Shown piece after piece: positions 16,482 through 41,423 of a stretch of 53,920 nt of DNA (its first letter is position 1; the number at the start of each line of letters is the position of its first letter). This DNA comes from a virus (Duplodnaviria; Caudoviricetes), in IMG/VR virus record IMGVR_UViG_3300017998_000013, positions 1 through 53,920 of that record; one strand, given 5' to 3'. The notes beneath the pieces were generated by a model. That model searched no databases and was not told the origin of the DNA. It saw nothing but the letters and a program-made list of their open reading frames with translations. Made by a program: the position numbers and the translations under genes.

Positions 16482-17768
16482 TCACTTCGGCCAGACGCCG
16501 AGCTTCCGAGCCTTATCAAGTTTTTCGTCCATCTGCTCCCACCCGTCTTTTTCGTACTCTTTGCCCTCGAAATCCACTAGCGCGAGTGATTCAGTCGCCT
16601 GTTGCTGGGCTTCTTCCAGCGTTTTGCCAAAACCTACACACTCCGCAATCAATCCGCCGTCTCCCATAGGGATACGATAAAACATGCCGTCTTTTTTATT
16701 CTTATAGAACTGCCCGAGCAGCACCCTGTCCATATCTTTCTCTTTGAGCTTGATAGGGATCGCCGTATCGTTGGCGGAATTCGACCATGTGACTATCTCG
16801 GCAGCGTATGGCGCAACATATTCAAGTTTCACATCTTCCCCACCAGCAACGCGATACATTACTTCGGTCAAGTTTTTAGTCCCGCGGGTCAACGCCCCCC
16901 CGCTCGGCCGGCCGAACCGCTGGCAAGCATCCGAATAATAGCCAACCGTCTTGCCGTCCACCTTCACCGCCCCGATTTCCGTGGACCTGACCCCCTGCAA
17001 TCCGCCTTTTTTAAGCCCTGGTCGAATCACATCATCGATATGCTTGACAACCGGGGGGAGGTCGTCATACGGCATGAAGTGGCCAGCGTAATTACAGCCC
17101 TTCAATTCGACCCCAAGGAGTGCATTATCCAGATAGTCGTTGCCGAAAAATTGCTCGTCGCCGACCTCTTCCCCGCCATCAGGTCGAGGTTTTTCAACCA
17201 TAATTATTTGATCTTCGGCGAAACAGTCGAGTTTCGCAGCTATTTTATATATTTTTGTAGCCGACTTTTTATAAGTCTCGACGTGGAAAGTCTCTTCAAC
17301 TCCTCGCGCATCGTTATTCAATTTCACCCATGTGTCAGGATGTTTTTTGAGATATTCGACAAGTTCTTCAATCCCTTCAACCGGCTTGTATTGCATTACC
17401 GGCAGCCCCCGCGCTTTTAGCATCTCTCGAAACTTAAACCGGTCCCCTTCCCATTCTTGCGCTCCCTGCCCACATCCTCCCGTCCTGATACCTCGCTTGC
17501 GGAGATCGTCTATAAGATCCCCGTAGCCGACATCAGGGAACCACACACAATCGACATTCTCAATGTCCTCAAAAAAGTAATCCCACCGCACAATCCCCGG
17601 CACCCCTTCACCCATAGCACAGTCGTGAGGCTTCGGGAAACCTCGCTCCCACGGAGAGAAGTATTCCATTATCTTCACATCTTGCGCGATCCGCTGCGCG
17701 ACGTGGATAAACAGTCCGCCTACATCAAATATCCTCCACCGCTGCTTGCTGAATGGTTTTTCGATCAT
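16482..17768 (-). CDS. PurD (GAR synthetase)-like ATP-grasp ligase
   Basis: GDLIDDLRKRGI..GG....QEWE.DR..F...L...GLP...Y, WVK, MVEK, and DACQRFGRP (cf. PurD EFNxRFGDP). ATGA overlap with the giant gene. Confidence 0.75.
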   Translation of the reverse strand: MIEKPFSKQRWRIFDVGGLFIHVAQRIAQDVKIMEYFSPWERGFPKPHDCAMGEGVPGIVRWDYFFEDIENVDCVWFPDVGYGDLIDDLRKRGIRTGGCGQGAQEWEGDRFKFREMLKARGLPVMQYKPVEGIEELVEYLKKHPDTWVKLNNDARGVEETFHVETYKKSATKIYKIAAKLDCFAEDQIIMVEKPRPDGGEEVGDEQFFGNDYLDNALLGVELKGCNYAGHFMPYDDLPPVVKHIDDVIRPGLKKGGLQGVRSTEIGAVKVDGKTVGYYSDACQRFGRPSGGALTRGTKNLTEVMYRVAGGEDVKLEYVAPYAAEIVTWSNSANDTAIPIKLKEKDMDRVLLGQFYKNKKDGMFYRIPMGDGGLIAECVGFGKTLEEAQQQATESLALVDFEGKEYEKDGWEQMDEKLDKARKLGVWPK

Positions 17769-20700: not shown

Positions 20701-23700
20701 GAGGGAATGACCGGCGCCACTCTACCTCTATCGGCCCGAGTCCGCGGGCTGCCCGCTCTCCTTCGGTAACGGCGTTTTTGATGGAGGTGGTGCGGGGAGA
20801 AGCATCAGCGCTGATAGTGTCGCCTTGTTGAAGAACACCTGCCATCTCCGCCTCGTCCTTATGAGCCAGCCCACCCTCCATATCCACTTTCTCATCCCCT
20901 CCTGGTTTAGCATCCTTCCCCTCCCATAACCTCTCAAGCGCGTCCGCCTCTGCCAGCCACTTCCGCGCCCCGGCCTCGTCCCGGTTCTTGACTGCCTCTT
21001 CTGCCTTGTCCAATGCCCCGTTATACTTGCGGAGAAATTCGGCTTTGTTGTCTCCAACGCTGCCATGCTGGTTGCCGGTCATGCGCCTGACCTTATCCCA
21101 AACATCCTCCATCAGCGATTTAAACCGCTGCCAGAGGTCGCCGAGTTTCTCTTTCATCCCCTTGACGAAATCCTGGTACTTCGTGCGCCCTTCGGTGAAT
21201 ACCTGCTTGCCGAGGGTTTCAAGGTGCGGGATGGCCGATTTTACCGCTCGGGGGATTTTGGATAATGATTCGTAGGCTTGCTGTAGACCCATGAAGTCGA
21301 GGGTAACGCTATTGTCCGGTCGCCAATCCTTAATCATCTGGATAGTTCTTGACGACATGGAATGGCCAGTATCATCAGGGGTGAATTGGTGGCTTATTAA
21401 CCAGTCGGCAAGGTCATCTACGTTATAACCGTTATCGTGGGCGAAGGCCATCACCCTGTCAACGTCGGGTGGTCTGAGTTGCTGCGGGGTGTCCGCTGCT
21501 GCACCAAGCGCCCCGGTGAATTTCACCTGATCGTCATGGGGGATTTCCTTGACCTTGCCAGACTTCACCCCAAACGATTCAAACGCCTCATTGACTTTGC
21601 CCTCGGATTTTACAGGCATTACCACTGCAACGATTTTGCCATCTTCCACGAAGTTAATCGGGTTCTTATCATCCTTGAACCTGATTTCAGCATCAGGGTA
21701 ATGGTGGCGGACATAAACATAAAATTTCTGTGACATATCCGTAGTTGCGCCGTTTTCACCAGTCAGCCGGACAAAAGCAACCTCGTCTTTTCCTGTTTTT
21801 ATAGGTTCGTCCGAAATCCCTTGAAAGGACACATCATCCCCTGATCTTTGCGCCACCATGTTCCCGTTTTTGTCCATAGCTAAGAACTTTGCACTGGCTA
21901 CGGGAGTCCCTTCCTTCGGGTTGGAAGTATACATTTTGACAACTTGCGCGGTGCGCTCGTCCAGGTCTTTCGCCTTATCAGGGGGCATCTCCGATTTGAA
22001 AGGGACTGTCGGCTTGCCTTTAACAATCAGTACGCCGTTGGTATGCCAGACATTATTATCAGCATCTTTCCCTGTGACCCCATTCTCAATGCCTTCGGCT
22101 TTTACTCCCGTTGCCTTCGGCAGAGGTCCGTAGCCTTTTGTCCCCTTTGGGACTTTTTCGGATGCAGGGAAAAGTTTTTCGACGGTCTGTTTAAATGCCT
22201 TGAGCGCCTGCTGATCGTTGAACACCTCAAAAATCCCGTCATCAGGAACTTCGATAGCGACGTATGCCCCTGCATCACGTAACGCTTGCTGTGCCTGTTT
22301 TATGAGCGGGTCAATGCGCTTGGCGTCCGCCTTTGCCACTTCGAGAGCATTCTCGACTTCCGCAATCTTTTCTTGCCGCTCTTCTGCTGTGAGGTGCTGG
22401 AAACGTTCAGGGTCGCTGTAAAGTTTTACCCTGCTGGTAGCATCGCCCATGGCATCAGCGGCTTTGCCGCGCGCTTCCCGCACTTCGGACAGTTCTTTAA
22501 GCAACGGGTTGAATCTATCCCAGTCACGATACTCAGGCGCTTCCTTTATCGCCTCGTCAATATTCGCGATTAAATATCGCTTCTGCTCCTTGAGTGGCGT
22601 GCCTTCCTTCCTGGCGGTCTTTACCGCTTCCGTGACCACCTCGGCGGGGGTGTCGGGGACCCTTGCGGCTTCGTAGTCGGCGCGGGCGGTCTCTTCCTCT
22701 TTTGCGACTTCCTTTGAGGCGGGCTTATCCGGCACAAGGTCAACAATCTCGCTGGTATTCCCTTTAGCATCGAGCGTGATAATTCCATCGTACCCGTCTT
22801 TTATGAGGGCTTTTGATAGAGCCTTGCCTTTTTTGCCGCCGTATTTGTCAGATAGAGCCTGTTTCCAGTTGTCGGGTTCGCCATATCCCCCGCCCCATCC
22901 AACAACAAGGGGGTTCTTAAATTCGACCTCTCCTTCTTTCAGGTTCGGATAATCATCGCCTTTGAACGTGATCGGCCGCTCGTTGATATATCGCCCTGCC
23001 GGTTCAAGGTGCTGGCCGAAACGCTCTCCCATGTTCGGGGCTTTCTCGGTATTCCAGATATATCCCATCTTTACAGGCTTGCCAGTCTGGTATTTTACCC
23101 CTCCGCCTTCAGCCGGAACTTTATCGGGAACGGGGGGTAATGGCGTCACGTCTCCGAATCTTGCGTTGATCGTGCCTGCCGGTTTGCCATCTTTATCAAT
23201 TACAAGGTGAATCGTCTCGTTGTTTGAGGCGTCCTTGTATTTATTCATTGCCTTGGCGTTCTTCTTTGCCGCTTCGTGCATCCCCTCGGGCGTTCCGTCA
23301 TGCTTCGAGACTTCATAGCCCATCGGTTCGCCATTAAGGTCGTTTACTTGGGTGAGGATGGTGTTCGGCTCTGGGGCGGGCTTCTTGGTGATCTGCTTTC
23401 CTTCCACCTTCTCCACGGCTGCGTTCATGTCCTTTGAGTGAAGGTCCTCTCCCGGGTGCGCCTTCTCCCACTCATCATAAACCGCGGGATTCTCTTTCTT
23501 GAGGAATTCGGCCCCTTCGTCGCGGGTGACGAGTTCCCCATCGGGCTTTGCAAACATCCGCTCGGAGTTTTCCGGCATGTCCGGGTTTGCTTCGAGTATC
23601 GACGGATGGTCTGAACCTACCTCTCCGATTACGGTGTCTGATCCACTCCGAAGAGCAGGGCGCAGGCGGGGCAACTCGTCGCTTGCTGGTGCATCCACAT

Positions 23701-25228
23701 TTTGCACCGTGGACACTGTTTCGGCGGCTGCGGGTTCGTTATCGGCTGGAACTGGTTGTTTCTTGCCCTTGCTTCCCTTTCTCGATTCCTTATCACGTTT
23801 AGGCGCCTCCGGTAGTGGTTTGGCTTTGTCGCCCTTATTTATGATTGTCTGCTTACCGTCACCGTCCCGCTGTACGAGCACGTCATACGGATTCAGCGTG
23901 TTATCCTCGGGCCGGATGCCAATGGCGGGGCGTTCCTTACCTGACCGGGAGTCGATAATCACTGAGGCAATGCCGCCCTTGATTCGGGCTTTCTGCTCTC
24001 TCACGGCTTCCAGGGAAACGTCGGTCTGCCCGCTGGCGTTCTCCTCAAGCGGGTCCACGATAGGAGTGCCGCCCCTGATCTCTGATGCGGATTTCTTCGG
24101 CGGCTCTTCTTCGGATATTGCAAGACGGGTAGCCTTGCCGCGCTTCTCTTTGAGCGTTTCGCTGATCTCGTCAAACGGGTCGATTATCTCGGGCGCGGGG
24201 GCTTCTGCCTGGCGGAGTTCGATTTGCTTCTGCCCGGTCACATCCTTGGCGGTTCCCTCAACCGTCACGCCTTCCTCGGCTGGCACAGCTTCCCGCATCT
24301 TATCTATGGCGTGCTTCATCTGGAGTTTATTCGGCTTTACCTGTTGGAAATACTGAGTGAAGCCGGTAACGGTGTCGTTGTACGCCTTCTGCCGTACTGC
24401 GAGGTCTTGAGTCGGGGTTGCCGCCATCTCTTCGGAAACGTCCCTTATCCCGGTCGCCGCACTGTAGGTCTGCATGAAAGCGTCAAAATCGGTCTGGTCT
24501 GCCGGAGCGCCGAGTCGAGCTGCCCCTTTACCTTCCGGCGCCACTCCCTGAGATATCGGCAGATTCCGCATGGCCTGGGCGACAAGACCCGTAACAGTGT
24601 CCATCGCCTTCTTGTCGCCTGTCCCCGCCATGTATGCTTGAGCTGCGTTTGTAACCCAATCTGCCAAGTTAAGCGTCTTGACTATTGGGACCAATGGCGC
24701 GAGTCCCTTCCGTGCGATATCGGCGGATTTGTCAGAGGGGAACGCAATCGTACTCTTGCTTGCCTTCACGCCTGCTGCATGAGACGGCATCATTTGACCG
24801 TAGTCATCAGGTTGGAGACTGGCGTTTAAGTCTTTTAAGTACCCTATGGGGTCCAGACTGATTGCTTCCCTCGCCTTGGTGAGAGCGCCCCCGGTGGCGG
24901 CAGGGGCGCTTGCGGTGGGAGGGGTGAGGGACATGGCTTGGCGGGTAGTGGGGGGTGCGAATCCTGAACCTTGCTGAGCTGTCGGAGCTGAGAAACCTCC
25001 TGATTGCGGCTGTGCCTGAATAGGTGCAACGGTCGCCTGGGTCTGATCGTCGGTAAGTGGGGTCTCCGAGCCGTCCGGCAATACGCGAGTCTGGCGGCTG
25101 CCGGCCACGGGGCGGAAATCATTAGGAAGTAATTGACGGGTACCGGAAGGGGCGGGTTCGTCAAAAGGGTCAACAATCCCGCCGGGAGAATCTTCGTAAG
25201 GGTCAACTATTATTGCTGCGCGGGCCAT
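17765..25228 (-). CDS. Giant (2487 aa) ejection/polyvalent virion protein
   Basis: Last and largest gene of the podovirus internal-protein block. Mosaic of modules, with an ART-like segment (~22735-23097) and a helical C-terminal half. Confidence 0.8.
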   Translation of the reverse strand: MARAAIIVDPYEDSPGGIVDPFDEPAPSGTRQLLPNDFRPVAGSRQTRVLPDGSETPLTDDQTQATVAPIQAQPQSGGFSAPTAQQGSGFAPPTTRQAMSLTPPTASAPAATGGALTKAREAISLDPIGYLKDLNASLQPDDYGQMMPSHAAGVKASKSTIAFPSDKSADIARKGLAPLVPIVKTLNLADWVTNAAQAYMAGTGDKKAMDTVTGLVAQAMRNLPISQGVAPEGKGAARLGAPADQTDFDAFMQTYSAATGIRDVSEEMAATPTQDLAVRQKAYNDTVTGFTQYFQQVKPNKLQMKHAIDKMREAVPAEEGVTVEGTAKDVTGQKQIELRQAEAPAPEIIDPFDEISETLKEKRGKATRLAISEEEPPKKSASEIRGGTPIVDPLEENASGQTDVSLEAVREQKARIKGGIASVIIDSRSGKERPAIGIRPEDNTLNPYDVLVQRDGDGKQTIINKGDKAKPLPEAPKRDKESRKGSKGKKQPVPADNEPAAAETVSTVQNVDAPASDELPRLRPALRSGSDTVIGEVGSDHPSILEANPDMPENSERMFAKPDGELVTRDEGAEFLKKENPAVYDEWEKAHPGEDLHSKDMNAAVEKVEGKQITKKPAPEPNTILTQVNDLNGEPMGYEVSKHDGTPEGMHEAAKKNAKAMNKYKDASNNETIHLVIDKDGKPAGTINARFGDVTPLPPVPDKVPAEGGGVKYQTGKPVKMGYIWNTEKAPNMGERFGQHLEPAGRYINERPITFKGDDYPNLKEGEVEFKNPLVVGWGGGYGEPDNWKQALSDKYGGKKGKALSKALIKDGYDGIITLDAKGNTSEIVDLVPDKPASKEVAKEEETARADYEAARVPDTPAEVVTEAVKTARKEGTPLKEQKRYLIANIDEAIKEAPEYRDWDRFNPLLKELSEVREARGKAADAMGDATSRVKLYSDPERFQHLTAEERQEKIAEVENALEVAKADAKRIDPLIKQAQQALRDAGAYVAIEVPDDGIFEVFNDQQALKAFKQTVEKLFPASEKVPKGTKGYGPLPKATGVKAEGIENGVTGKDADNNVWHTNGVLIVKGKPTVPFKSEMPPDKAKDLDERTAQVVKMYTSNPKEGTPVASAKFLAMDKNGNMVAQRSGDDVSFQGISDEPIKTGKDEVAFVRLTGENGATTDMSQKFYVYVRHHYPDAEIRFKDDKNPINFVEDGKIVAVVMPVKSEGKVNEAFESFGVKSGKVKEIPHDDQVKFTGALGAAADTPQQLRPPDVDRVMAFAHDNGYNVDDLADWLISHQFTPDDTGHSMSSRTIQMIKDWRPDNSVTLDFMGLQQAYESLSKIPRAVKSAIPHLETLGKQVFTEGRTKYQDFVKGMKEKLGDLWQRFKSLMEDVWDKVRRMTGNQHGSVGDNKAEFLRKYNGALDKAEEAVKNRDEAGARKWLAEADALERLWEGKDAKPGGDEKVDMEGGLAHKDEAEMAGVLQQGDTISADASPRTTSIKNAVTEGERAARGLGPIEVEWRRSFPHSFEAAKRRVDSGEFDPRLEAKKYAEKPRALSTEEEAAFEYDRMRLYNDHHTVMGLIDKAVQSGDQAAILEGRQRLAVIEDDISDNDYVARRSGYEAGHSLSFRRMLVKQDYTLARSLQRARAATGEKEIPEDLRKQIETLTQELEAAVKKSQEYEEKLANIEAQRVVSKQEPSPAAKRREKRAVTREELDSQFKSLAGKLRASLSTLSMNFNPEQAAILGEMMKIRVQEGITKVGDIVDDIYAEFEGIPDVSKRDIRDAISNYGKSYQMSQEEIQVEMREIRRQMRLVSGLEDAQAGQAPLHSGLQRDPVSDEVRDLQKQIHEEMKNQGINQKSSEERWKTALDSVKTRLKNEIHDLDEQIAAGKRKYKDKTTLEYDEEAKRLKSVRDEKKALLDQIDAKPPKTEQELNDIGNRMAKARYQTRLKELQRMLDTGNYEKRARRVLKLDPEAQRLKAEVEKKKEAVDTAIRRQAHANRTPVEKGLDWAVKWRRAVILSSIQTVGKLTAAATMRQITTPIEDLIEGGLSLFPGLSRISAKAPREGGGLNVRAEAAAFSQWFKKQTWQDIKDVAITGRGELDRLYGSKKDMLPTSALDFFGRVHGALKVTPKRAEFYRSLQKRTEWAMRNGYDMSDPVTVATITADAYIDANRAIFMQDNFVIKGYRIWLNYLKTRGDLGKATAAGMQMMTPIVKIPTNFVAELTSYAFGAAKGSARVAFSKGIENLTPEEADYVMRAFKKQGLGLAMLAIGYFAYEAIGGYYQRGEKRKAGEVKEGELRLGKFDVPKFALHTPALEILQLGATIHRVQDQYAASDEKNEKKIDEGKKEAKGSGTGAGIFAGAKGIAEQVPFFEQPVRMAEATRSEASARTWANQFAESLLMPPDIRRISKYMDRAGDQQIPREQKEFWSQVMRGDIPGQRKNLPVDIAKVKKMQLDQLAEIMENAPGDVVDQIQPVFRTKFRRAHGLSDEERDRYLELIK

Positions 25229-26931
25229 CAGCGACCCCCGTATTTTTTATTGTAAAATGCCTCCAAGTCTTTATCGGCAACGCCGGGGTTCTTCGCCCTT
25301 GCGGCTGTCATCCATTTATCTTTCGACGGCGCCGCCTTGCCCGCGCTCCTTGGGTTTATTTTGCTGCCACCGCCATGAGGTTTCGCCTTGGCAATCGCCT
25401 CCAGTATCTGAGTTTTCTTTTCCTTATTAGTGACTTTGTTGGCGGCAGCGGTCAGGTCGTCTTTACTATGGCCTTTATCGACTGCCCCCTGCATGGTAGC
25501 GGCCATATCTGTTCCTGAAATCGACCCTTCAGGGTCAAGGCCCTTCATCCATTCGCTCAATTTCTCAACCGTCGCGTGCCCTTCTGCCTTGGTGGCCGGT
25601 TTGCCTTCTAATTCGGCTTTTGCCAACCGCTTCGCCTCATTGGCGATCCCCACCACATCCCCTTTCCATTTATCGTCCTTTTCAAGGAGGTCGATGTACT
25701 TTTTCTCAACCTTGTCTTTCTTTTTCTCGCTGTCGTCTTTCTTGTTCCGCGCCTCAATCTGCATCCCGATTCCTTTGAGGTGTCCGGCGACGGTGGTCTC
25801 AACCTTTTTCTGCCCTGCCTCGATGGTGGCGTTCGTTTTCGCCATAGGGTCCTGCGCTCCCGGTATCATATCCCCCTCTTCGGTCAGGATACTGAAGCCT
25901 GTCTTTGAGTCAGGATCTTCGACGACCTGGCGGGTCGGCTTATCCTTGTTGAAGAGCGTCTTCGCAGTGTTCATCAGGTCTGCGGTTTTCTGAGTGCTTC
26001 CCGCCTTCTTCATCTGCTTGACGTATTCCAGCCGCGCCTCGCCGGTCTTCAGGTCCTTCGGCATCTTGTCCAGAACTTCGGCCTCCCGGGTGTCCTCTGC
26101 CCTCTGCTCTCCCGCTTTCTTTACCTGCTCGACGAACTTCTCCCCGCCTTCCTCATTCGCAGCGACGGCGGCTAGAAGTATTGGGCCGAAACTGGCGGTA
26201 TGTACGAGAGTGTTCTTAAATTCATCTATCGGGATTTCGTGGATGTATTCCTTATCGCCGTCCATTTTGGTGTGGGGTGTGGGAGGGGAAATACTGCCGT
26301 CTGCGTTGCCGGTCCGGACCACGGGGATAACTACTCCTTTGTCAAAATCTATCAACAGCGATTCCGCCTCTTTACCCTCCAGGAGCTTCGGCCCGGCATA
26401 CTGGTTGAACGCCTCCATCAGTCCTGGCACCTGCTGGCTGCTCAATCTCACCTTGCGCTGGCCTTCCGGCAAGCTCTGGGCGTGCTGGATAAGTGCCGGT
26501 TGGACCTGTCCGATTATCTGCGTGAGTTGGTGGGCGGCGTAGGTCTGCGCCAGGGCTTTATGTGGGTCGTTGTCGAGGTCGGGCGACGCTTTGGTGAGCC
26601 CGTAAGCTGCGTCTACCTCTTCGGGGGTATATTGCGGCTGCGTACCGTTCGCTGCTGCCTGTGCCAATTTCATAGATGCGCTGACAAGCGGAGCGTGCAG
26701 CATTTTATGCTTGAGGTCTAGGTCGTCAAAAGCCTGCTGCGTCTTCTGGTGGACGATACTCTGCTTTTTCTGCTCCATCTCGACGTCCATCAACTGCCGA
26801 TGTTGGGCGTGATCTTCCTTCTCCATATTCGCCTTATCTATGCCTTGGAAAACGCCGGTCACCTTCGCAAAGGCGTCTATGCCACTCTCGACCGGATCAC
26901 CGTATGGAGACAAACCAAATCTCGCCATCAT
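25228..26931 (-). CDS. Putative ejection (internal virion) protein
   Basis: Position immediately upstream of the giant protein; Q/K/A-rich and helical; start and stop overlap the neighbouring genes. Confidence 0.65.
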   Translation of the reverse strand: MMARFGLSPYGDPVESGIDAFAKVTGVFQGIDKANMEKEDHAQHRQLMDVEMEQKKQSIVHQKTQQAFDDLDLKHKMLHAPLVSASMKLAQAAANGTQPQYTPEEVDAAYGLTKASPDLDNDPHKALAQTYAAHQLTQIIGQVQPALIQHAQSLPEGQRKVRLSSQQVPGLMEAFNQYAGPKLLEGKEAESLLIDFDKGVVIPVVRTGNADGSISPPTPHTKMDGDKEYIHEIPIDEFKNTLVHTASFGPILLAAVAANEEGGEKFVEQVKKAGEQRAEDTREAEVLDKMPKDLKTGEARLEYVKQMKKAGSTQKTADLMNTAKTLFNKDKPTRQVVEDPDSKTGFSILTEEGDMIPGAQDPMAKTNATIEAGQKKVETTVAGHLKGIGMQIEARNKKDDSEKKKDKVEKKYIDLLEKDDKWKGDVVGIANEAKRLAKAELEGKPATKAEGHATVEKLSEWMKGLDPEGSISGTDMAATMQGAVDKGHSKDDLTAAANKVTNKEKKTQILEAIAKAKPHGGGSKINPRSAGKAAPSKDKWMTAARAKNPGVADKDLEAFYNKKYGGR

Positions 26932-27335
26932 GCCCTCCGTCTTGATTCGCGGAATATGTTTAATCTGTCTTGAAGATCGGCAAGCGTGAAGCTCATAACC
27001 TTCGGGAGAAACATCCCCGTCCTTGCCATATATTTTTTATATCCGGGGAACCCTTCACAAAGCATCTTCTCTTCCTGTCTTGCGGTGTGGGAAAGGAGTA
27101 CCAGCAACACCAGCCAGGCCGGTAAGCCGCCTCTCCATCCCGCGCAGAGAGCGAATACCCCCCCGCACATGATAAGAGAGGCGAGGTAGGCAGGGTGGCG
27201 GATATATTTATAAAGCCCCTTCTGGTAAATCTGCTCGGGCTTCGTTATCAATAGGTTGAATCCTGGGTTATTCCAGACCACCCAGAATCTTATCCCGTAT
27301 CCGACGAGTATCATTGAAATCTTTAAGGATATCAT
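26928..27335 (-). CDS. Isoprenylcysteine carboxyl methyltransferase (ICMT/Ste14)/PEMT-family membrane methyltransferase
   Basis: GLYKYIRHPAYLA, TM segments, EEKML...FPGYKKYM.RTGMFLP. TAATG overlap upstream and ATGA overlap downstream. Confidence 0.85.
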   Translation of the reverse strand: MISLKISMILVGYGIRFWVVWNNPGFNLLITKPEQIYQKGLYKYIRHPAYLASLIMCGGVFALCAGWRGGLPAWLVLLVLLSHTARQEEKMLCEGFPGYKKYMARTGMFLPKVMSFTLADLQDRLNIFRESRRRA

Positions 27336-27541
27336 TACATTATGCACGCGGCGATTATTCCCGCAATAGCTATGGCCGCGCCGACTCCCCCGGAGATCAT
27401 CGTCATCTCTTGAGCTTTCTTGGCGTCGGCCTCTTGCTGGTTCGCTTGGTCAACCTGTTGCTGCTCTGCCGAGGAACGGACGAAGCCGCTGATCGCATTG
27501 GACTGTTCTCCCAAGCCTGTAGAGATAATTCCTCCGGCCAT
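27335..27541 (-). CDS. Small putative ejection protein (68 aa) with hydrophobic Gly/Ala C-terminus ending ...AACIM
   Basis: SD GGAGGGGG before MAGGIIS; Q-rich coil followed by GGVGAAIAIAGIIAACIM. Confidence 0.7.
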   Translation of the reverse strand: MAGGIISTGLGEQSNAISGFVRSSAEQQQVDQANQQEADAKKAQEMTMISGGVGAAIAIAGIIAACIM

Positions 27542-30211: not shown

Positions 30212-32604
30212 TGTGGAAGTTCCCCGATATCCGAAGCGAGATAAACAACCGTCGCTCCTTTCGTACCATACACCCGGCAGTCAACGGCGTCAACCATTGC
30301 GTTCGCCATCCCTATCATCTGCGGGTTTTTCGATGTGACCGTAGCGGTTATTGTCTGCGGCGCCGGGTTGCCGTTCCCGTCCACTATCTGCGGGTAGATT
30401 ATATCCACTACGACCGGGTATGACGTTGCGAGCACCTTAATCCACTGCGGCATACTCGGCGGGCCGGACTGTCGCGGCGATTTCCAGTCGAGTGAGCGAG
30501 GAGATGCAACATTTGAAGCAAGCGACACGATATCATTGCCGACCTGGAGGAACAGGTAACCGGTCACGAAGTCGTAGCATCCCGCCGTAGCGTAGAAATC
30601 CAAGTCTACGAAGTTCTTGGTTGCCGGATCGAATATGAACCCCGCCTGAACGTCGCCGTTTGTGTAAAACCCAACGTATTTATTCTCCCAGAAGTACGCC
30701 GAAATGGATGATGGAGCGTAATTTGCCCACTCATCGCGGGACATAATATCCTGAGTGATGATATTATTCGTCCCTTGCCCGAGAGCAATAAGCCCCTCCG
30801 GTGCGGCATAGATCGAAAACGCCCCCATGTTTACGACACTGCGCTTTGACAGGCAACTGAACCCTAACGGAATATAGGCCGGGACGCTGTTCTCCGGGTC
30901 GGTGAACGTGATCGCCTGCGGGAGCCCTTGAGTCAGTATCACAAGGGTATTCCCCCATGCAACGAGCCCCATGATTTCATCTTCCATAGACTTCTGATAA
31001 CTGGCAGGCCATGCGTGGGGGTAGCTCGGAACGGAAAGGCATAGAGTGTTGTTGAGCCAACACGCCATAGCCTCATTCGGAAGAGCTGCGAGCCCCTCCA
31101 CACCGGCCGGTGGGCCATCCCATTCGGCAGACTGGAGCACATCCGCCAGAGCTGAGTCAAGCAGGGAATCGGTATAGGACGCCGTGGCCACTGCCACCTG
31201 TTCGACAAGCTGAAAAATCTCGTTACCGTTCGCGTCTTGATTCAGCCGGTATATGTTAGAGTACAGAACCCAGAACAAAGGATCTGCCGGGCCGGTTTCA
31301 AGCCCCGTGACTGACACATGGTCCCCATCGAGCAGAGCAATAAGATTCGACACCGGCCCGGGGGGGCCAACCTCCCCATATCCGTTCACATACGCCTGAA
31401 CATAGTTTTTAGATTCGAGAGTGGTGGGGTCCGGATCGACGAGCTTCATTGCAGAGCATTTAACGTAAATTCCAGATGCGAACGTGCCATAGTCGTTAGA
31501 ATCCACCCCGTCAAGAGTGAAGTGCTTTGCGTCAATAACGGTAATGGTCCCGATCCACCCCTCAAGCTCCACCATCCCGACCATGTTGTAGAATTTCAGA
31601 GAGGTCCCTGTAGTGAGATTATGCGCTGTGCCTTGAGTCAGTTTAGCGGGGTTCGCCTTGCTGATATTGTCTGATGTCCCGATGGACACGGCAACGGGGG
31701 TGAATACTGAGGCAAGAGGGGACCCTGACGAGAGCACTCGCGACTGAAGTGTCCACGTCCCGCTGGTAAACGTGGGGTAACTTGTGGAATCCACCCCGTC
31801 TATGGTGAAATGAGACGAATCAACCACCGTGATCGTTCCCTGGTAGCCGTTAAGCTCAATCATTCCTATAATGCTGAACAAGAGGGTGTCACCGGTGATG
31901 AGTCCGTGGTTGGTATCAGTGCATTCAGCCGGGTTCCCTTTCGATAACACGGTAATCGTCCCGGAGTTCATCACCTTCAGACCTGTAGCGTAGAAACTGG
32001 CAAGCCCCGCTGCGATAGTGAGCCCGTTGAACGCGAACGACACCCCGTCGAGGCCGGTGACCCCGGTGGAGAAAAATTCCAGTAGCCAGTTCAGGCTGAT
32101 ATTCCCCATCCCGTTGTCGTAGACGGTCACCTTCGCGCCTGTTGAGTCGAGGATGACTGATGCTATCATCGAGAAAGGGGCAGACACGCCAAGGACTGTG
32201 GCAACGGGGGCGGTGAGAGGGGCGGGTGGTGAGGGTTTGCGGTAGGCCATGGGGTAAGCGGTGCCACCCTGTTTATAAAGGTTCTTATCCGTTACCCGCA
32301 ATTCGCCCGCTTCGGTGTAAAATACCCGCTTCCATGAGTCGTTAGGAAGAGGGGCGAGCACGGCGTCTACATCATCCGCCCATGCGAGCCACTTTACAGA
32401 ACCGTCGCCATCATAGAGAAATATCGAGACTATCGGTCCTGCGACCGTCGGGGTGTATTCGGCACCATCGGTCCCGAGCGGGACGAGTCCGCCGTGATCG
32501 AACCGGCAGTTTTTGGCTACCTGAGCATGACCGGGGGGGATAAGCCGCGGGTCGGTGATCCTTGGAACAATGCCGCCAAACTGAGAAAAAGTCAAGAGCG
32601 CCAT
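30208..32604 (-). CDS. Tail nozzle/stabilisation protein with inserted E1-FCCH-like repeats
   Basis: F.G..PR, AKNC.F..G.L.P, Y...YVN.YGE.GPP, PHAWP..Y, CLSKRS.V. Two repeats of S.KxNPA...H.L.TG...GM.EL.G...ITV.D..HFT.DGVDS..Y.TF.SG. Confidence 0.75.
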   Translation of the reverse strand: MALLTFSQFGGIVPRITDPRLIPPGHAQVAKNCRFDHGGLVPLGTDGAEYTPTVAGPIVSIFLYDGDGSVKWLAWADDVDAVLAPLPNDSWKRVFYTEAGELRVTDKNLYKQGGTAYPMAYRKPSPPAPLTAPVATVLGVSAPFSMIASVILDSTGAKVTVYDNGMGNISLNWLLEFFSTGVTGLDGVSFAFNGLTIAAGLASFYATGLKVMNSGTITVLSKGNPAECTDTNHGLITGDTLLFSIIGMIELNGYQGTITVVDSSHFTIDGVDSTSYPTFTSGTWTLQSRVLSSGSPLASVFTPVAVSIGTSDNISKANPAKLTQGTAHNLTTGTSLKFYNMVGMVELEGWIGTITVIDAKHFTLDGVDSNDYGTFASGIYVKCSAMKLVDPDPTTLESKNYVQAYVNGYGEVGPPGPVSNLIALLDGDHVSVTGLETGPADPLFWVLYSNIYRLNQDANGNEIFQLVEQVAVATASYTDSLLDSALADVLQSAEWDGPPAGVEGLAALPNEAMACWLNNTLCLSVPSYPHAWPASYQKSMEDEIMGLVAWGNTLVILTQGLPQAITFTDPENSVPAYIPLGFSCLSKRSVVNMGAFSIYAAPEGLIALGQGTNNIITQDIMSRDEWANYAPSSISAYFWENKYVGFYTNGDVQAGFIFDPATKNFVDLDFYATAGCYDFVTGYLFLQVGNDIVSLASNVASPRSLDWKSPRQSGPPSMPQWIKVLATSYPVVVDIIYPQIVDGNGNPAPQTITATVTSKNPQMIGMANAMVDAVDCRVYGTKGATVVYLASDIGELPQ

Positions 32605-33548
32605 TATTGCCCCGCTGCCGCGACTGCGGTTTTCACCTGTTTCTGAACGCCGAGTGCTTGGTAAAATGATTGCCTATACATCTGCGACTTCTGCAAAGCA
32701 TTAGGCACGGTAGTATTCTCCGCCAGGCACCATGCAATGCAGCCGTTAATCGCCGGGACTTCGAACTCATCAGGGAGAGGGAACGGGTCGTTTACCGGGT
32801 CCTGTGCCGCGGTCGGGTATGCAGAACCGAGGTTTTCTATCTGTGTGGGGGCAACTGCGGGTTGGGGAGGAAACACGCCGTAAGCGTAGGGGTCTTTCTC
32901 ATCCATGACCACGATGGAGACCACCCCATCGGCCGGCCAAGTGTGCCAGTCAGGGATACACTGGTCCATAGTCTCACGGGGGACGGAAGTTATCACTTTG
33001 CCGGGGGTGGCTCCGTTGACGCCCATGTTTCTTCTCGCGTCCAGCAGATCATTCCATCCAGCGGGAAATGTTTGCCGTGTCCCGGCAACGAGTTGGCACA
33101 CCTGAAGAATGGAATTCGCTTCCGGCCGGAGGTCCACTATCTCATGACAAACGAGATTCAGGTAAACGAGCAGGATATTCGTTGGGTAGCCGATATTCAG
33201 TATATCCTGGAGCTGCCGGCCGATTGCCGCGATAATCGCCGCTACCCCCACCGTGCCGGGACCGACAAGCGCCTCCTCAATAGATATATCGTTGCCGATC
33301 ATCTGGCCGTTGTACCATATCTCTATCGGGTAGGGTCCGCCGTTTGGAACGGCTAGGCTGCCGTAATACCACGACTGAATGGCGGATGTGTCGGCGAATT
33401 CCGTGAGATAGAAATCGTTTTCTGCGCCCCATTGGAGCGTAGTGAAGTTCCAGAACTGCCCTGCGTTCGGCATTCGGCAGTAGACTGCGGCATTGCCGAG
33501 GCCCTTGTCGTAGCGGAGCGTCACGTTTTTCGTCGGTTGGTTGAGCAT
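32604..33548 (-). CDS. Head-tail adaptor/connector protein
   Basis: QLQD....Y....LL.YLN....I...RPEAN, LVAGTRQ..P, RNMG..G..PG, P.WH; ends FYQALG. Confidence 0.65.
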   Translation of the reverse strand: MLNQPTKNVTLRYDKGLGNAAVYCRMPNAGQFWNFTTLQWGAENDFYLTEFADTSAIQSWYYGSLAVPNGGPYPIEIWYNGQMIGNDISIEEALVGPGTVGVAAIIAAIGRQLQDILNIGYPTNILLVYLNLVCHEIVDLRPEANSILQVCQLVAGTRQTFPAGWNDLLDARRNMGVNGATPGKVITSVPRETMDQCIPDWHTWPADGVVSIVVMDEKDPYAYGVFPPQPAVAPTQIENLGSAYPTAAQDPVNDPFPLPDEFEVPAINGCIAWCLAENTTVPNALQKSQMYRQSFYQALGVQKQVKTAVAAAGQ

Positions 33549-33559
33549 GATTCCCCCGG

Positions 33560-34018
33560 TTACTGTACCGCCATATCCAGATTAAACATTATGTAGGTGT
33601 CCACGTTCGATTTGCGCCAGTTCAGGTTTGGGCCGTTGTTGAAATTTCGCATAAGCCAGATTCGAGGATCGCCAGCATTCACATAAATAACCCCCGTGCC
33701 ATAGGCCCCGCCATTGGTGTAAGTGACCGTACCGACAAAGCCGCTCTTCGCCGGTTTCAGTCCTTCAGGGATATTTACCAACAGCCCGGTAGACGGGATA
33801 CCGGATACACTGGACACCTCTAAGGTCATGTTCCATTGCAACCGGCCATCTTCTACCTTATATTCATTCCTGGTGATGCTGCCGACATCGACAGCCCACT
33901 GCATAAAGGCGCTACCGTAGAAGTCAGAGTTGTCGGGATTGTAGGTTTGCCATTGGCAAGCATTGGCAGAGATTGTTATGAGCATGATTACTAAGAACAT
34001 CCAGAATGTTTTCATCAT
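33560..34018 (-). CDS. Signal-peptide protein paralogous to the C-terminal domain of the upstream tail-fibre-like protein
   Basis: MMKTFWMFLVIMLITISANA followed by a domain that aligns by eye with the last ~125 aa of 34028..35116. Confidence 0.7.
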   Translation of the reverse strand: MMKTFWMFLVIMLITISANACQWQTYNPDNSDFYGSAFMQWAVDVGSITRNEYKVEDGRLQWNMTLEVSSVSGIPSTGLLVNIPEGLKPAKSGFVGTVTYTNGGAYGTGVIYVNAGDPRIWLMRNFNNGPNLNWRKSNVDTYIMFNLDMAVQ

Positions 34019-34027
34019 AACCTCCTG

Positions 34028-35116
34028 TTACTGGATTTCAAACTCAATATTGAGCAAGATCGACGTATTCCCGGTTGACGCAGCCCAAGTGGTCGAAGCA
34101 TAATTTTTAAATAGTCCCATGTACGACGACCCGTTGCCATTGCCAGCAATAATCCCCTGCCCATACGTTCCGTTGTCTGAATAGACGAAACTGCCGATAT
34201 ACGAATTCGTTACCTCTTTTGCACCATTTGGGATGGTCAGGACGAGGGCATTACCCCCTGATGTCACGCTTGTCCCCGTGATCGAAAGAACCCAGTGCAT
34301 CCTTTTCCCCACTATGGAATATCGGCTATACGCAACGTTCCCCGAGACGACCGTCCATGTATTGCCAGACCCGATAAAGTTCCCCGCGCTGAACGTGGGG
34401 GTGCTCCATGTTGGAAGGTTATTAGTTATCGCCCTCCCAACGAAATATGAATTTACCGCATACCTGCTGCTGTCTGACGCCGGGGGAGTCGGCACCTTAA
34501 GCCCATGTGTTGTATAGTTCACAAATGGCGCGGAATAGTTTGCAAACGGTGAACGACCATCAGGTCCATTAACCGGGATTTGGCTTGCGCCAGGGCGGGT
34601 CGAAGGGGCGAACCCTCCTGCCAGCGTAGAATTGGCAGCAAGAGTGGCATTCGCTGCATTCGTGGCCCAGAATACCAAACCTGAATCGGTAAGGGTCCCT
34701 ATCGGTATCCACCCGGTATCTGCGCCGTTCCTGATCCTGAGAGTCGGGGGGGAGGTCGAAGTATCGCACCATAATGGGTTATGAGACCCCGTTGTCGTCG
34801 GTGCTGTGGCTGAGTTATAAACAGAGAGGATGTTCGCTTGGACTTGGTTTACAGTCGCCCGGCCACCGCCCATGGAGGTATATGCAACCTGGACCGCACC
34901 GATACTCGCAGGGGTGATCGTAATCGTTTTAGACCCCGGAGTATTCACTGCCCCCACGACCTTGATAGTCGAGTGGGAAGTCGGGGCGCATATTTTGCCG
35001 CCGGCAGAAGAGAAACAATTGAACGTGTTAATTACCGGAGTGGCGTTGCTGCCGTAGACGATTTGACCGACGCAAAACAAAGCGATCGCGAGTATTCCGT
35101 AATAGATCGGTTTCAA
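34028..35116 (-). CDS. Tail fibre/receptor-binding-like protein with N-terminal signal-like sequence
   Basis: TTG start overlaps the upstream stop. TAP...LWCDTS....LRIRNGADTGW is a fibre motif; S/T/G-rich; beta-rich tip with RYSIVGK. Confidence 0.65.
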   Translation of the reverse strand: MKPIYYGILAIALFCVGQIVYGSNATPVINTFNCFSSAGGKICAPTSHSTIKVVGAVNTPGSKTITITPASIGAVQVAYTSMGGGRATVNQVQANILSVYNSATAPTTTGSHNPLWCDTSTSPPTLRIRNGADTGWIPIGTLTDSGLVFWATNAANATLAANSTLAGGFAPSTRPGASQIPVNGPDGRSPFANYSAPFVNYTTHGLKVPTPPASDSSRYAVNSYFVGRAITNNLPTWSTPTFSAGNFIGSGNTWTVVSGNVAYSRYSIVGKRMHWVLSITGTSVTSGGNALVLTIPNGAKEVTNSYIGSFVYSDNGTYGQGIIAGNGNGSSYMGLFKNYASTTWAASTGNTSILLNIEFEIQ

Positions 35117-35850
35117 TAGAAATCCCCCCTTTTCATGCGCCTGCGCGGTAAAGGCACCGCCCTGGCGTTGAGCACCGTGTCCACCTCGTTCTGTAGCATG
35201 GCCTCGAAGTCCGGATCTGCCTGGATGACGTTCAGCCCCTTGGTGATCACCCGGGGAACGCCCTGGAAAAACGCCTGGTCGAACAGCCCGTTGAACGGTA
35301 TCGGCACATCGGATGTCACATTATCGACTGTCTGCGTGGGAGCGGATATCTCTGACGGCATCCCGTAGTATCTTGCTTTGATGGAAACTGAGACAAGACC
35401 GGTATCGAGTGCAGGGTAAAAGACAATCTGTGCCAGTCCGAGAAGTTCATATTTATACGGAGAAAGCGCCGTCTGTCCTTGGAATCGAGCCCGGCTGCCG
35501 GTTATCGGCTCAAGGCATCCCGATCGGCCGTAAAGGTCGTAATCGTAGCCGCCGTAACTCTGCGAATTATCACTATCCCAATTATCATCGTCATAACTCC
35601 CGCTGTAATCGGGATTGTACGGCTTTTCCGCAAGGGAAATGAACCCGTCAGGGAGGTCGTAATAAACCGTGTCAGGGGTGACGGTCCATGTGTTTTCCAT
35701 TTGAACGAGCAGATCACTCTTCACTTTGATGAGGCGCTTGGCGATCATCGAAGCGACATAGTTTATTGCTTGGTAGAATGTCGTGCCGGTCGGCGGGGCT
35801 TTGGCAATCCGCGGGAGGGCATCAAGGACTAGTTGCTTAACGGTTGTCAT
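35113..35850 (-). CDS. Putative tail/adaptor structural protein
   Basis: MTTVKQLV..A, YDLPDGF and P..Y...G...FYP motifs; located in the tail block. Confidence 0.55.
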   Translation of the reverse strand: MTTVKQLVLDALPRIAKAPPTGTTFYQAINYVASMIAKRLIKVKSDLLVQMENTWTVTPDTVYYDLPDGFISLAEKPYNPDYSGSYDDDNWDSDNSQSYGGYDYDLYGRSGCLEPITGSRARFQGQTALSPYKYELLGLAQIVFYPALDTGLVSVSIKARYYGMPSEISAPTQTVDNVTSDVPIPFNGLFDQAFFQGVPRVITKGLNVIQADPDFEAMLQNEVDTVLNARAVPLPRRRMKRGDFY

Positions 35851-36146: not shown

Positions 36147-36944
36147 TTACCCCGCCATTTTCAGCGCCGCCATCTGCGCTTCCCAGTCGGCAACGGTCAT
36201 GCCTATAGGAGTTATCCCGGTCGTGTCCGTCCAGTCCTGAGAGATGAAAGAATAGACCTCATCAACGAATGCGTCAAAGAAAGCCTGAGTCATGCCGTAC
36301 TTTCTCCCCCATGAAATCACAGGGTAGGTTCCCGCCACATTGTAGCCCGGCAGAATGACGCAATGCCCTCCAACTGTGTCCGTCACGTCCACGCCAGCGG
36401 GAACATCCCACACATCCGGCGGGGTCATCGGGTTGCCCTGCGCATCGTACATCAGGAAGCGGGGAACCTCGAAGCCGATATAGACCAGGCCCGATTCGTA
36501 GATGCACTCCTTCACATCCTGTGTATTGCGCGGGTCCGTCTCGAAGAATCCAAGGAGCTTTTCTGCGGTCGTGCCGTCACCGATAGGAAAGCCGGTATTG
36601 ACGCAGTACCCGAGCACGTCCTGCTCGACGCCACCTTTGTCGGTGTTGGGGTCGTTGGGGTCATAACCGCAGGCCTGTTCATAAAGGGCCTGGACGCAGT
36701 TGTCCGATTCGGTGATGATGTTCTTTGCCGCCCATTGGGTAAGCACCTGCCGGGCATGGTAGACACCAGCGCAAGTGCAATCCCCTTCTGCATCGTTGAG
36801 CATCATTCCCACGTCGACAGGGAGTCCGGGCGTGTAATCGCAAGAATCGGGAATCAAGAGTGTCTTTTCCCGGCGCATGGTGAGGGCCGAGTAGTGAGGA
36901 ATGAAAGGATAGAATTTACGGGGCAACCGCCCGAGTTGGAACAT
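36147..36944 (-). CDS. Papain-like (C1-type) cysteine peptidase
   Basis: MMLND..GDCTCAG (catalytic Cys), GGHCVIL.GY (His) and ISWG; SD GGAGG before MFQLGRLP. Confidence 0.7.
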   Translation of the reverse strand: MFQLGRLPRKFYPFIPHYSALTMRREKTLLIPDSCDYTPGLPVDVGMMLNDAEGDCTCAGVYHARQVLTQWAAKNIITESDNCVQALYEQACGYDPNDPNTDKGGVEQDVLGYCVNTGFPIGDGTTAEKLLGFFETDPRNTQDVKECIYESGLVYIGFEVPRFLMYDAQGNPMTPPDVWDVPAGVDVTDTVGGHCVILPGYNVAGTYPVISWGRKYGMTQAFFDAFVDEVYSFISQDWTDTTGITPIGMTVADWEAQMAALKMAG

Positions 36945-37013
36945 ATCAACCTCCAAAACTAGGGGCGGCGGACCGCCCCGTTACCAAAAGGCTGGCAGAT
37001 CAAGTCCGTGGTG

Positions 37014-38857: not shown

Positions 38858-40072
38858 TTAGAATCTGCCACCGTATACCTGCAACATAATCATTGCGGTA
38901 GCCGGGAGGTCTTTCGGAATCCAGCCAAGGCTTTGAAGCGCCTGGAGTTCTTCCATGGTCAGCCCCTTGGCAACGTACATCATGCCCCTAACCGAAGCGG
39001 AGACGGTCGGAGGGGTGATGGTAAAGGTCGCCCCGTTGCCGGTCGCCGCGGCAGAGGTGAAGGTGTAGAATGCCATGGCGTGCGTAGTGGTGCTGTTGTA
39101 AAGCTGAGCGCAGTCAGCGGTAATACCGGTGCCGTCGGTTGCGGTCCAGACGAGGCCACCGGTGCAGTTGAAATCAGAGGCCAACGGAGAACTGCCGGCG
39201 GTCGCAGCGGCGGTGAGTGTAGCATAAGAATTCGTAATGTACCCGCCGACATTTGCAGCTTGGCTGATATTGGCAGAGGTACTTTGAGCTATGAGTCCCC
39301 CTGTCACAGTTAACGAACTGAGCGCCCCCGTTGAGCCTTCAGCCGTCAATGGTATCAGGTCGCTTCTCAACATGCCGAGCGGGTCATGCTGTGCGCCGAC
39401 TGATCCTACCGAAGCGAGGGCAACATTTGCAATGCCAAGCCCGGCGGTCGTGATCGCCGTGGTGCTGGCGGTCCCGCCATAGCTTGCAAGATAAGCCAGT
39501 CCGTTGCTCATGCCGCCAGCGGATACCGGGAAGGGCCAGGTTGTGCCGACACTCCCCCCATCTGACAAGGTGACAACTGCGATGCTCTGCGCCGTTACTC
39601 CGATCGTGCCGATACCTGCCCCGCCGCCGCTTCCATAAGGGGCCGGGCTATTATTCACGAAACCGTTTATCCCTAAGAACCCGACAAGCCCCTGGCTGCC
39701 GACCTGATTATTTAATAAGCTGACTTGTCCGGCAAGCCCACCATATGCTGCAACATTTCCCCCAGACTGCGCCCCTAATGATGGAGAAGGCACAACCGCG
39801 CTGATGGTGGAAGAGATGAAAAGACAATTGCCGATGCCACCCTTTGCGCCAACAGAGGGGTGAAACGGTTGGCTCCCTATACCGGGATTCCAATTGAACG
39901 CTTGCATATGGAATGGGAAACCGACACCGCTCCATGCGAAATCCCCAAAATGGAATGGGGGTCCATTGTTAAGGCCTGAACCTGTATAAAGAGACGCTAC
40001 GCTGCCTCCCCATGCAGAGGTGCCCAAGGAAATACAAAACAGTATTGATATCAGGGTATTAAATCTTTTCAC
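38858..40072 (-). CDS. Gly/Ser/Ala-rich structural-region protein with signal peptide
   Basis: GTG start; MKRFNTLISILFCISLGTSAWG; low-complexity, beta-rich body. Confidence 0.65.
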   Translation of the reverse strand: MKRFNTLISILFCISLGTSAWGGSVASLYTGSGLNNGPPFHFGDFAWSGVGFPFHMQAFNWNPGIGSQPFHPSVGAKGGIGNCLFISSTISAVVPSPSLGAQSGGNVAAYGGLAGQVSLLNNQVGSQGLVGFLGINGFVNNSPAPYGSGGGAGIGTIGVTAQSIAVVTLSDGGSVGTTWPFPVSAGGMSNGLAYLASYGGTASTTAITTAGLGIANVALASVGSVGAQHDPLGMLRSDLIPLTAEGSTGALSSLTVTGGLIAQSTSANISQAANVGGYITNSYATLTAAATAGSSPLASDFNCTGGLVWTATDGTGITADCAQLYNSTTTHAMAFYTFTSAAATGNGATFTITPPTVSASVRGMMYVAKGLTMEELQALQSLGWIPKDLPATAMIMLQVYGGRF

Positions 40073-40081
40073 CGACTTCCC

Positions 40082-40507
40082 CTATGGCGTATATCCGCCG
40101 ATAAATGTTCCGCTGCCGAGTGTCAGGAAAAAGTTTTGTACCCCGTTCAGATAAACTTTGACAGGAACAATGGTATTCGCATAAGAGTTTGCTGATGTGG
40201 AAACGATTCGGCAGGTCCATTCAGCCGCTGTCAGGTTCGTTTTGCCATAATTGGTTGAGTAATTGGCAAACCCATGGGTCCCCAATGAAAGCGTCCGGGA
40301 ATAAGCATCGTCGGGCGAAAACCCTTGTATAATACTGGTCTCCCCGCCAACAGCGTCGGTTTTCAGTTTCTTGTTCATCCCGAAAACGCCGCATTCGATA
40401 TGGTTCGCCGAGGAATACGCTTGAAATCCGATCTTCATCATCGGCCCGGCATATGTGATTGCAGCCGATAGGGTTACCATCAAAACTGCGATTATTATCC
40501 TTTTCAT
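40082..40507 (-). CDS. Structural-region protein with signal peptide
   Basis: MKRIIIAVLMVTLSAAITYA; ATGA overlap with the upstream gene. Confidence 0.65.
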   Translation of the reverse strand: MKRIIIAVLMVTLSAAITYAGPMMKIGFQAYSSANHIECGVFGMNKKLKTDAVGGETSIIQGFSPDDAYSRTLSLGTHGFANYSTNYGKTNLTAAEWTCRIVSTSANSYANTIVPVKVYLNGVQNFFLTLGSGTFIGGYTP

Positions 40508-40976: not shown

Positions 40977-41423
40977 TCAGTCGGCGCCGAGCAGGTAGAG
41001 GTAAAGGGACCGGTTAGTGGAAATGGCCGCAGGGGTCCAGGTTGCTCGTACAAAGTTGCAGAGGCTGTTGATTTCAAAGGTGGTGAATGCCGCGCCGTTG
41101 GCCAGGGTTATCACATTCCCCAAACTATCCTTCATGGGAGCCCACGGACCACTGGCGGTTACCCCACAATAGAGGGTGGCCGGACCGTTGATGTTGGTCG
41201 TCTGGACTGCGCTGGACATTCCCGTAAAAACTGCGGTCGCCCTGACGTTGCCGAACATCCGGGTAACATTGGAGTTCAACGCCGAAGTGGCGGTGGCCGC
41301 CTTGGCGCTGAATATCGCGTTAGATTCCCTGGTGACAAGCGGACCGTTCTGCATGTCGGCGAAAGCTGCCGAGCAGAGCATACCCACTATGACAAGGGAA
41401 AAGACTGAGATAAGGTTCTTCAT
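40977..41423 (-). CDS. Beta-rich capsid-decoration-like protein with signal peptide
   Basis: MKNLISVFSLVIVGMLCSAAFA, then G.W..., FVRATW. Confidence 0.6.
   Translation of the reverse strand: MKNLISVFSLVIVGMLCSAAFADMQNGPLVTRESNAIFSAKAATATSALNSNVTRMFGNVRATAVFTGMSSAVQTTNINGPATLYCGVTASGPWAPMKDSLGNVITLANGAAFTTFEINSLCNFVRATWTPAAISTNRSLYLYLLGAD

Follow-up and report, generated by a model that had tools for sequence, protein, structure and literature searches.

A predicted exported copy of a fibre head encoded as an accessory gene by an uncultured peat phage

Gene S and the head of fibre F

We analysed a stretch of 53,920 bases, hereafter the window, which is the whole of the IMG/VR record IMGVR_UViG_3300017998_000013 (completeness estimate 77%). 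It derives from an uncultured, short-tailed phage of peat or wetland that has a podovirus-type late operon on the minus strand, where all features named below lie unless stated otherwise. Two neighbouring genes, placed between the two adaptor-like genes of the tail module, are the subject here. F (34028..35116) encodes a fibre of 362 amino acids (aa) from a TTG start that overlaps the stop of the upstream gene, and S (33560..34018) encodes a signal peptide and a fibre-head domain only. The Shine-Dalgarno sequence of S, AGGAGG (34021..34026), follows immediately on the TAA stop of F (34028-34030). It stands 2 nucleotides (nt) from the first ATG of S, which gives a protein of 152 aa, and 5 nt from the second ATG at 34015; because of the latter spacing, the 151-aa form is likelier. 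No terminators were found near S and no usable promoter either, since the sole minus-strand sigma70-like site overlaps the S start codon. It is probable that S is made together with the late genes. A look-up across 24 runs gave no RNA data set holding this locus.

The signal peptide of S (33959..34018; residues 1-20, ending in ISANA|C) has the N-terminus MMKTFWMFLVIMLITISANA|C, that is, a lysine, a hydrophobic core of 14 residues and then A-x-A, and can be parsed as MMK, FWMFLVIMLITI and S-A-N-A|C. Signal peptides were called by reading together with a hydropathy heuristic, and by that standard the S leader has all the features of a Sec signal peptide cleaved by signal peptidase I, namely a basic n-region, an h-region of 7-15 residues and small residues at positions -3 and -1. 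In two homologues of S with 59-60% identity (P0002 and P0003) the leader sequence differs and is equally typical, with an invariant S-x-N-A site; S17, N19 and A20 are invariant across three homologues. The signal peptide proposed in the first-pass annotation, which had been made from the sequence without database searches, is therefore upheld. Cys21 is not conserved, being replaced by Ala in both P0002 and P0003, and S is thus best regarded as a substrate of signal peptidase I rather than a lipoprotein. We rejected the lipoprotein reading also on its motif, as A-N-A-C misfits the lipobox [LVI][ASTVI][GAS]C. Mature S starts 2 residues ahead of the first conserved Trp of the head and so has neither shaft nor anchor, in agreement with the earlier remark that it lacks any virion-attachment region.

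The head domain of S (33563..33958; residues 21-152) is homologous to the head of F (34031..34414; residues 235-362). In BLASTP, residues 16-152 of S and 230-362 of F share 27% identity across 138 aa (E 2e-14). The Smith-Waterman score of S against the F head was 154, which is 18.8 standard deviations above the scores of 2000 shuffled F heads (mean 35.5, standard deviation 6.3, maximum 68) and was reached by none of them. In addition, a profile of the head family (A3) matched F (E 7.3e-47) and S (E 1.3e-41) and no other open reading frame (ORF) of the window, in six frames and from 50 aa upwards. Judged by these sequence comparisons, S is a true paralogue of the fibre head, and the match that had been drawn by eye between S without its signal peptide and the C-terminal domain of the adjacent fibre holds in both pairwise and profile alignments. 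The motifs listed with it were largely accurate: FxGS, WxVxxG, LxxxIPxGxK, GxxxYxxxGxYGxGxI and TxIxxNxxxxxQ-stop occur in both proteins. There were two small slips, in that Y....GxRxxW fits F only, the Gly of S sitting one place later, and the spacing given as S..T is S...T in both.

The predicted fold is consistent with this relationship. The AlphaFold2 (AF2) model of S, with a predicted local distance difference test (pLDDT) score of 92.4, has a leader helix at residues 2-20 followed by a 10-strand beta-sandwich domain of about 130 residues. The model of F has a head with pLDDT above 90 and is poor in the remainder. The two models were compared by strand order and by shared PDB neighbours: each strand of F pairs with one strand of S, shifted by about 213 residues, and both models have the same top PDB entries, which are viral fibre heads, although none of those of S lies at E<=1e-3 in a Foldseek search of the PDB. 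The nearest known structures appear to be viral attachment heads, including those of reovirus sigma1 and sigmaC, the C-terminal domain of the Det7 tailspike, the adenovirus fibre knobs, and the receptor-binding protein (RBP) heads of the lactococcal phages bIL170, TP901-1 and p2 and of Listeria phage PSA. Structural neighbours in the ESM Atlas were viral fibre clusters; the feature matches there were all below 0.9 and were treated as leads only. Mature S was predicted as a homotrimer with an ipSAE of 0.95, compared with 0.08 for the best of three controls, with at least 87% shared contacts and pLDDT of at least 92. Of solved same-chain pairs, 20 of 30 attained this mark, as did 1 of 23 single chains; the pass may reflect likeness, as solved trimeric heads of this fold exist. 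On the model, S probably forms a free homotrimer.

An accessory gene in a hypervariable cassette

S is not a constant part of this phage lineage. Three sister contigs carry F (73% identical), an 11-nt spacer and then the adaptor gene, without S; the stretch 33566..34011 of the window is missing from the sisters L003, L004, L005 and L011. DNA alignment with L011 showed that S is a clean insertion within a hypervariable cassette of 1.77 kb (33307..35076), which covers S, F from codon 14 onwards and the initial ~80 codons of the gene for the 314-aa adaptor and is divergent within flanking DNA that is 100% identical. Two further small patches also diverge from L011, one in the 245-aa adaptor gene (35317-35436) and one at the junction of adaptor and nozzle genes (32527-32646). 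The patches in the two adaptor genes and the one at the adaptor/nozzle junction vary in step with F, in an otherwise identical background, and are possible docking surfaces. Most of the other late proteins that were compared have 95-100% identity to their counterparts in the sisters, whereas F has 73% and a leader-bearing protein of 404 aa has 76%. The G+C content of S is 0.48 and that of its neighbours 0.53-0.56.

Both forms of the locus occur together in nature. In two of the four peat or wetland runs compared (X9 and X11) we found contigs that skip S, with the joint 33548>34028 and the 11-letter spacer of the sisters, at depths of 78 and 18, together with contigs that hold S at depths of 2-6; these figures are contig depths, not read counts. 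A third run has S with a single difference. S is therefore an accessory gene, of which S-plus and S-minus forms co-occur in two public peat runs, and this natural co-occurrence offers a comparison.

A scan of metagenome contigs with the S family returned only two short contigs, with 99.7% and 97.6% DNA identity to the window over the shared stretch. One 1.5-kb contig, L091, shows no difference from the window in 267 shared nt of S against 33 differences in F. In this contig, codon 214 of F is changed from TCA to a TAA stop (window position 34476), just before the neck helix and the head, with the downstream S unchanged; the stop may be an assembly error or a natural headless-fibre variant.

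Leader-bearing late proteins, the head family and the surrounding genes

F itself starts with a signal or anchor segment (35051..35116; residues 1-22, MKPIYYGILAIALFCVGQIVYG) that is conserved in all its close homologues. One homologue, P0009, has a longer basic N-terminal tail before the same kind of segment, which is the pattern of a signal anchor. Some more remote relatives of F, namely P0010, P0011, P0035 and P0040, carry textbook signal peptides, and in three of these four the leader directly precedes a module, MAQHDY.IANQSG.AFR..., with which leaderless fibres of other phages begin and which presumably anchors those fibres to the virion. F has this module at an internal position (34676..34861; residues 86-147), with about 60 additional residues, a conserved Cys pair among them, in front of it. 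In those other phages, a scan gave 260 related stretches; 77 of these loci were read and none showed a leader, nor did any of the 14 ORFs related to P0040 in a scan of viral contigs; the same kind of scan with P0011 gave no match. Codons 26-93 of F differ from those of L091 by 23 synonymous changes and 2 replacements, which argues that the leader-proximal part is under strong purifying selection. A second, leaderless start in F was considered and rejected, as F has no internal Met before residue 82, and at that place homologues have V, A and V.

By hydropathy, 5 of the 36 ORFs on the late strand bear leaders. Besides S and F these are proteins of 148 aa (40977-41423), 141 aa (40082-40507) and 404 aa (38858-40072), with signal-peptide-like starts and no family match, whose genes lie between those of the coat protein and the lysozyme. 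The 404-aa protein is rich in Gly, Ser and Ala and hypervariable like F; the 76% identity is to its counterpart in L011, and only its last 105 aa are common with L012 and L010. Because F and three other late proteins also carry predicted leaders, an export signal alone does not separate S from the virion fibre, and the contrast of a virion fibre with an exported copy is too simple. An export signal on F is at odds with the textbook picture, in which tailed phages assemble both particles and fibres in the cytoplasm, and this more surprising context may matter more than S itself. A full-text search of the literature found no description of Sec leaders on virion fibres or spikes.

By profile search, S is a member of a fibre-head family that bears no Pfam, PHROG or NCBIfam name, neither S nor F having a match in these databases at the thresholds used. 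With the A2 profile, a search of 1.84 billion representatives gave 2359 proteins at E<=1e-3, of which 350 remained at E<=1e-10; since the F shaft was part of this profile, a few of the top matches rest on the shaft alone. Sequences in the PDB gave no match to the head-family profile at E<=1. Members include fibres of up to ~1300 aa, among them collagen-like ones (locus L006), and many proteins of 145-210 aa. The head is C-terminal in F and in most long representatives, whereas in S it directly follows the leader. Short leaderless members such as P0012, P0014, P0049 and P0107 resemble S in family and size. However, in 54 of the 55 that were read, 10-60 residues of cytoplasmic type precede the head, with recurrent starts such as DDDGTGTTGT or MAWTTP. 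Mature S has no such anchor peptide, and the suggestion of the first-pass annotation that it could be an alternative, swappable tip is therefore unlikely.

Leaders occur elsewhere in the family. A hydropathy screen of 156 head-family proteins flagged 23, of which 8 belong to the lineage of the window; outside it, 15 of 148 sampled representatives (~10%) have leaders, with P0068 ambiguous. P0094 has a leader joined straight to the head as in S, followed by a second, tandem head; P0060 has a leader, a Pro-rich linker and a head; and P0045 has a leader, a region with a GDS(I/L)-type motif recognised by eye, and a head. The design of leader plus head therefore recurs in the family, in P0094 and P0060. 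In a FastTree tree of 151 heads, the 18 leader-bearing rows require at least 11 changes of state, a count that may be inflated as the tree is poorly resolved. S falls with the F-lineage heads, P0010 and one leaderless row (local support 93), and a smaller IQ-TREE run placed it in the same neighbourhood with support of 90 in the Shimodaira-Hasegawa-like approximate likelihood-ratio test (SH-aLRT). S most likely arose from a fibre of the F type that already carried a leader; it either lost the anchor and shaft or goes back to an old duplication.

The late operon around these genes also encodes a small and a large terminase, a P22-type portal, a Phage_capsid_3 coat protein and, 4 kb upstream of F and S, the lysozyme. 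The two genes that flank F and S encode SU10_adaptor-family proteins of 245 aa (35113..35850) and 314 aa (phrog_399; 32604..33548), which match PF24175 with 33.9 and 61.1 bits against a cut-off of 27, and a 798-aa nozzle-like protein (phrog_511) is also present. The surroundings of F have the tail-module layout of SU10-type podoviruses, with adaptor, fibre genes and nozzle; in SU10 the gene order is gp11, gp12/13, gp16, gp17 (PMC9509320). Proteins of 2487 aa (17765-25228) and 567 aa (25228-26931) contain no cysteines, have no family match and probably serve as ejection or internal proteins. Between the small tail genes and the gene for the 567-aa protein lies the gene of a membrane protein of 139 aa that belongs to the ICMT/PEMT methyltransferase families (26928-27347). 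A 269-aa protein with 8 cysteines (phrog_19005, function unknown; 36147-36956) lies upstream of a 94-aa membrane protein, and both are 99-100% conserved in sister phages. At the left end of the record, beside replication genes, a pentapeptide-repeat protein is encoded on the plus strand (PF00805, E 1e-68; 2-715). INPHARED phages gave no DNA or protein match, and a scan of genome contigs with the F alignment gave just two weak shaft-motif matches and hence no clue to the host. From the short signal peptides and the single-domain lysozyme, the host appears to be diderm.

Proposed role of S and comparison with known systems

We consider it very likely that S is an accessory late protein that is exported by Sec, cleaved by signal peptidase I and made up solely of the receptor-binding head found in the phage's own fibre family, probably as a free homotrimer. 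As to its purpose, we put forward tentatively, at somewhat below even chances, that the exported head trimer occupies the receptor class of the fibre and thereby serves superinfection exclusion or the protection of progeny. The localisation, ligand and effect that we infer are as follows. S would be translated from its own AGGAGG within the late operon, cross the inner membrane, build up in the envelope and be freed at lysis. As a multivalent head without shaft or anchor, it would bind a ligand of the kind bound by the head, probably an envelope glycan or a surface protein, and would fill receptor sites on the infected cell and its debris, so that neither incoming phages nor the phage's own progeny would be wasted there. 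If S does block receptors, an export leader on a copy of the phage's own RBP head would suffice to make an exclusion or progeny-protection factor, and such a factor would automatically match the receptor class and be recognisable from sequence alone.

Several observations weigh against receptor occupation. In a diderm, Sec export alone would carry S no further than the periplasm, where until lysis the outer membrane would separate it from a surface receptor, and the probable late timing fits protection of progeny better than classical exclusion. S is just 27% identical to the F head and may bind something else. The S-minus form is the more abundant one in two of the four runs, by contig depth only. 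Finally, this phage may routinely export proteins of virion type, in which case a leader would not mark S as a decoy.

This last point leads to an explanation that we regard as unlikely, namely that S is part of an exported virion-fibre system, in which the recognition proteins (F, the 404-aa protein and others) fold in the periplasm and join the particle at lysis, and S is a second small adhesin on F or on another exported part. It would account for the conserved leader of F on a protein that contains the N-terminal module of leaderless fibres, for the five leader-bearing ORFs on the late strand, and for the divergence of both adaptor patches and of the nozzle N-terminus together with F in an identical background; S lies inside the same exchanged cassette, and many short head proteins of other phages are presumably virion-borne. 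However, mature S offers no stretch ahead of the head for docking, it is predicted to be a self-sufficient homotrimer, and sisters with 93-100% identical adaptor, nozzle and other late proteins manage without it. A combined form seems improbable to us, in which the whole host-recognition set (F, the 404-aa protein, the two small post-capsid proteins and S) would be exported by Sec and fold in the periplasm, cytoplasmic particles gaining their fibres only once lysis breaches the membrane, while S saturates receptors on the envelope of the dying cell and lets the newly completed virions get away. If true, it would mean a new assembly route for tailed phages as well as a new receptor decoy derived from an RBP. 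About equally improbable is that S acts as an exported, lectin-like envelope protein, either as a folding template or shield for the F head or as a periplasmic binder of glycan intermediates that alters the surface. The slot after the fibre gene, where S lies, is the usual place of fibre assembly proteins; S and F would share a compartment if both leaders work, and the predicted fold of S is common to glycan-binding heads such as that of sigma1. Against this, the sisters' F, 73% identical, has no such partner, S shows no similarity to chaperone families in Pfam, PHROG or NCBIfam, and no assembly helper with homology to the head itself is known to us.

We think it very improbable that S is a decaying, functionless leftover of a duplicated or truncated second fibre gene. 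It is found in one lineage only, the two further loci of the metagenome scan being near-identical to the window, and its lower G+C would suit such an origin, but the ORF is intact with a strong Shine-Dalgarno sequence, the fold is predicted with high confidence, and leader and head are both kept in homologues at 59-60% identity. Moreover, the same design arose elsewhere (P0094, P0060), and the 267 nt of S shared with L091 are unchanged, against 33 differences in F. A spanin-like lysis pair, made up of an inner-membrane-anchored F and an outer-membrane lipoprotein S, is scarcely credible. The N-terminal anchor of F, the Cys after the S leader and the nearby lysozyme gene bring it to mind, yet the Cys is Ala in the homologues, A and N at positions -3 and -2 misfit a lipobox, F is a beta-rich fibre with a head and not a coiled coil, and sister phages lack S. 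We rejected this reading on the unconserved Cys21 and the absence of a lipobox.

Our full-text literature search found no description of an exported paralogue of an RBP head. The position of S fits that of Tfa or gp38-type adhesins, but S has no match to those families and carries an export leader. The mosaic adhesive trimers (MAT) of Bdellovibrio combine a signal peptide, a phage-like trimeric fibre and exchangeable C-terminal binding domains, the same design as in F, P0010, P0035 and P0040. MAT proteins are bacterial, sit on the predator's surface and have a conserved domain of ~130 aa after the leader (PMC10769870), whereas F lies between the adaptor genes of a phage tail module, and the likeness noted here is one of design.

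Closer to the proposed receptor occupation by S are proteins of phage T5 and its like. Purified pb5 blocks T5 infection (PMC9586334). Free pb5 is thus a virion-less receptor-binding protein that occupies the receptor, as proposed for S, but that block results from laboratory addition of a virion protein, whereas S would be a separate, phage-encoded and exported copy of the head only. T5 Llp, the gene of which follows that of pb5, acts from the periplasm to render FhuA unavailable (same source), and S likewise lies directly behind a receptor-binding gene. Llp and the Cor proteins of T1 and phi80 are, like S, small exported proteins encoded beside the receptor-binding gene, and the proposed outcome, an unavailable receptor, is alike. 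They are, however, lipoproteins of ~60-80 aa that have no relationship to the RBP and block FhuA allosterically from the periplasmic side (PMC9586334). S is not a lipoprotein and has no Pfam, PHROG or NCBIfam match that would place it in the Llp/Cor sequence family. It is a paralogue of the RBP head, and its action would be to compete directly with the virion. On the evidence of its sequence and surroundings, S is a rare, well-delimited accessory gene and a new variant among the receptor-proximal exported proteins of phages.

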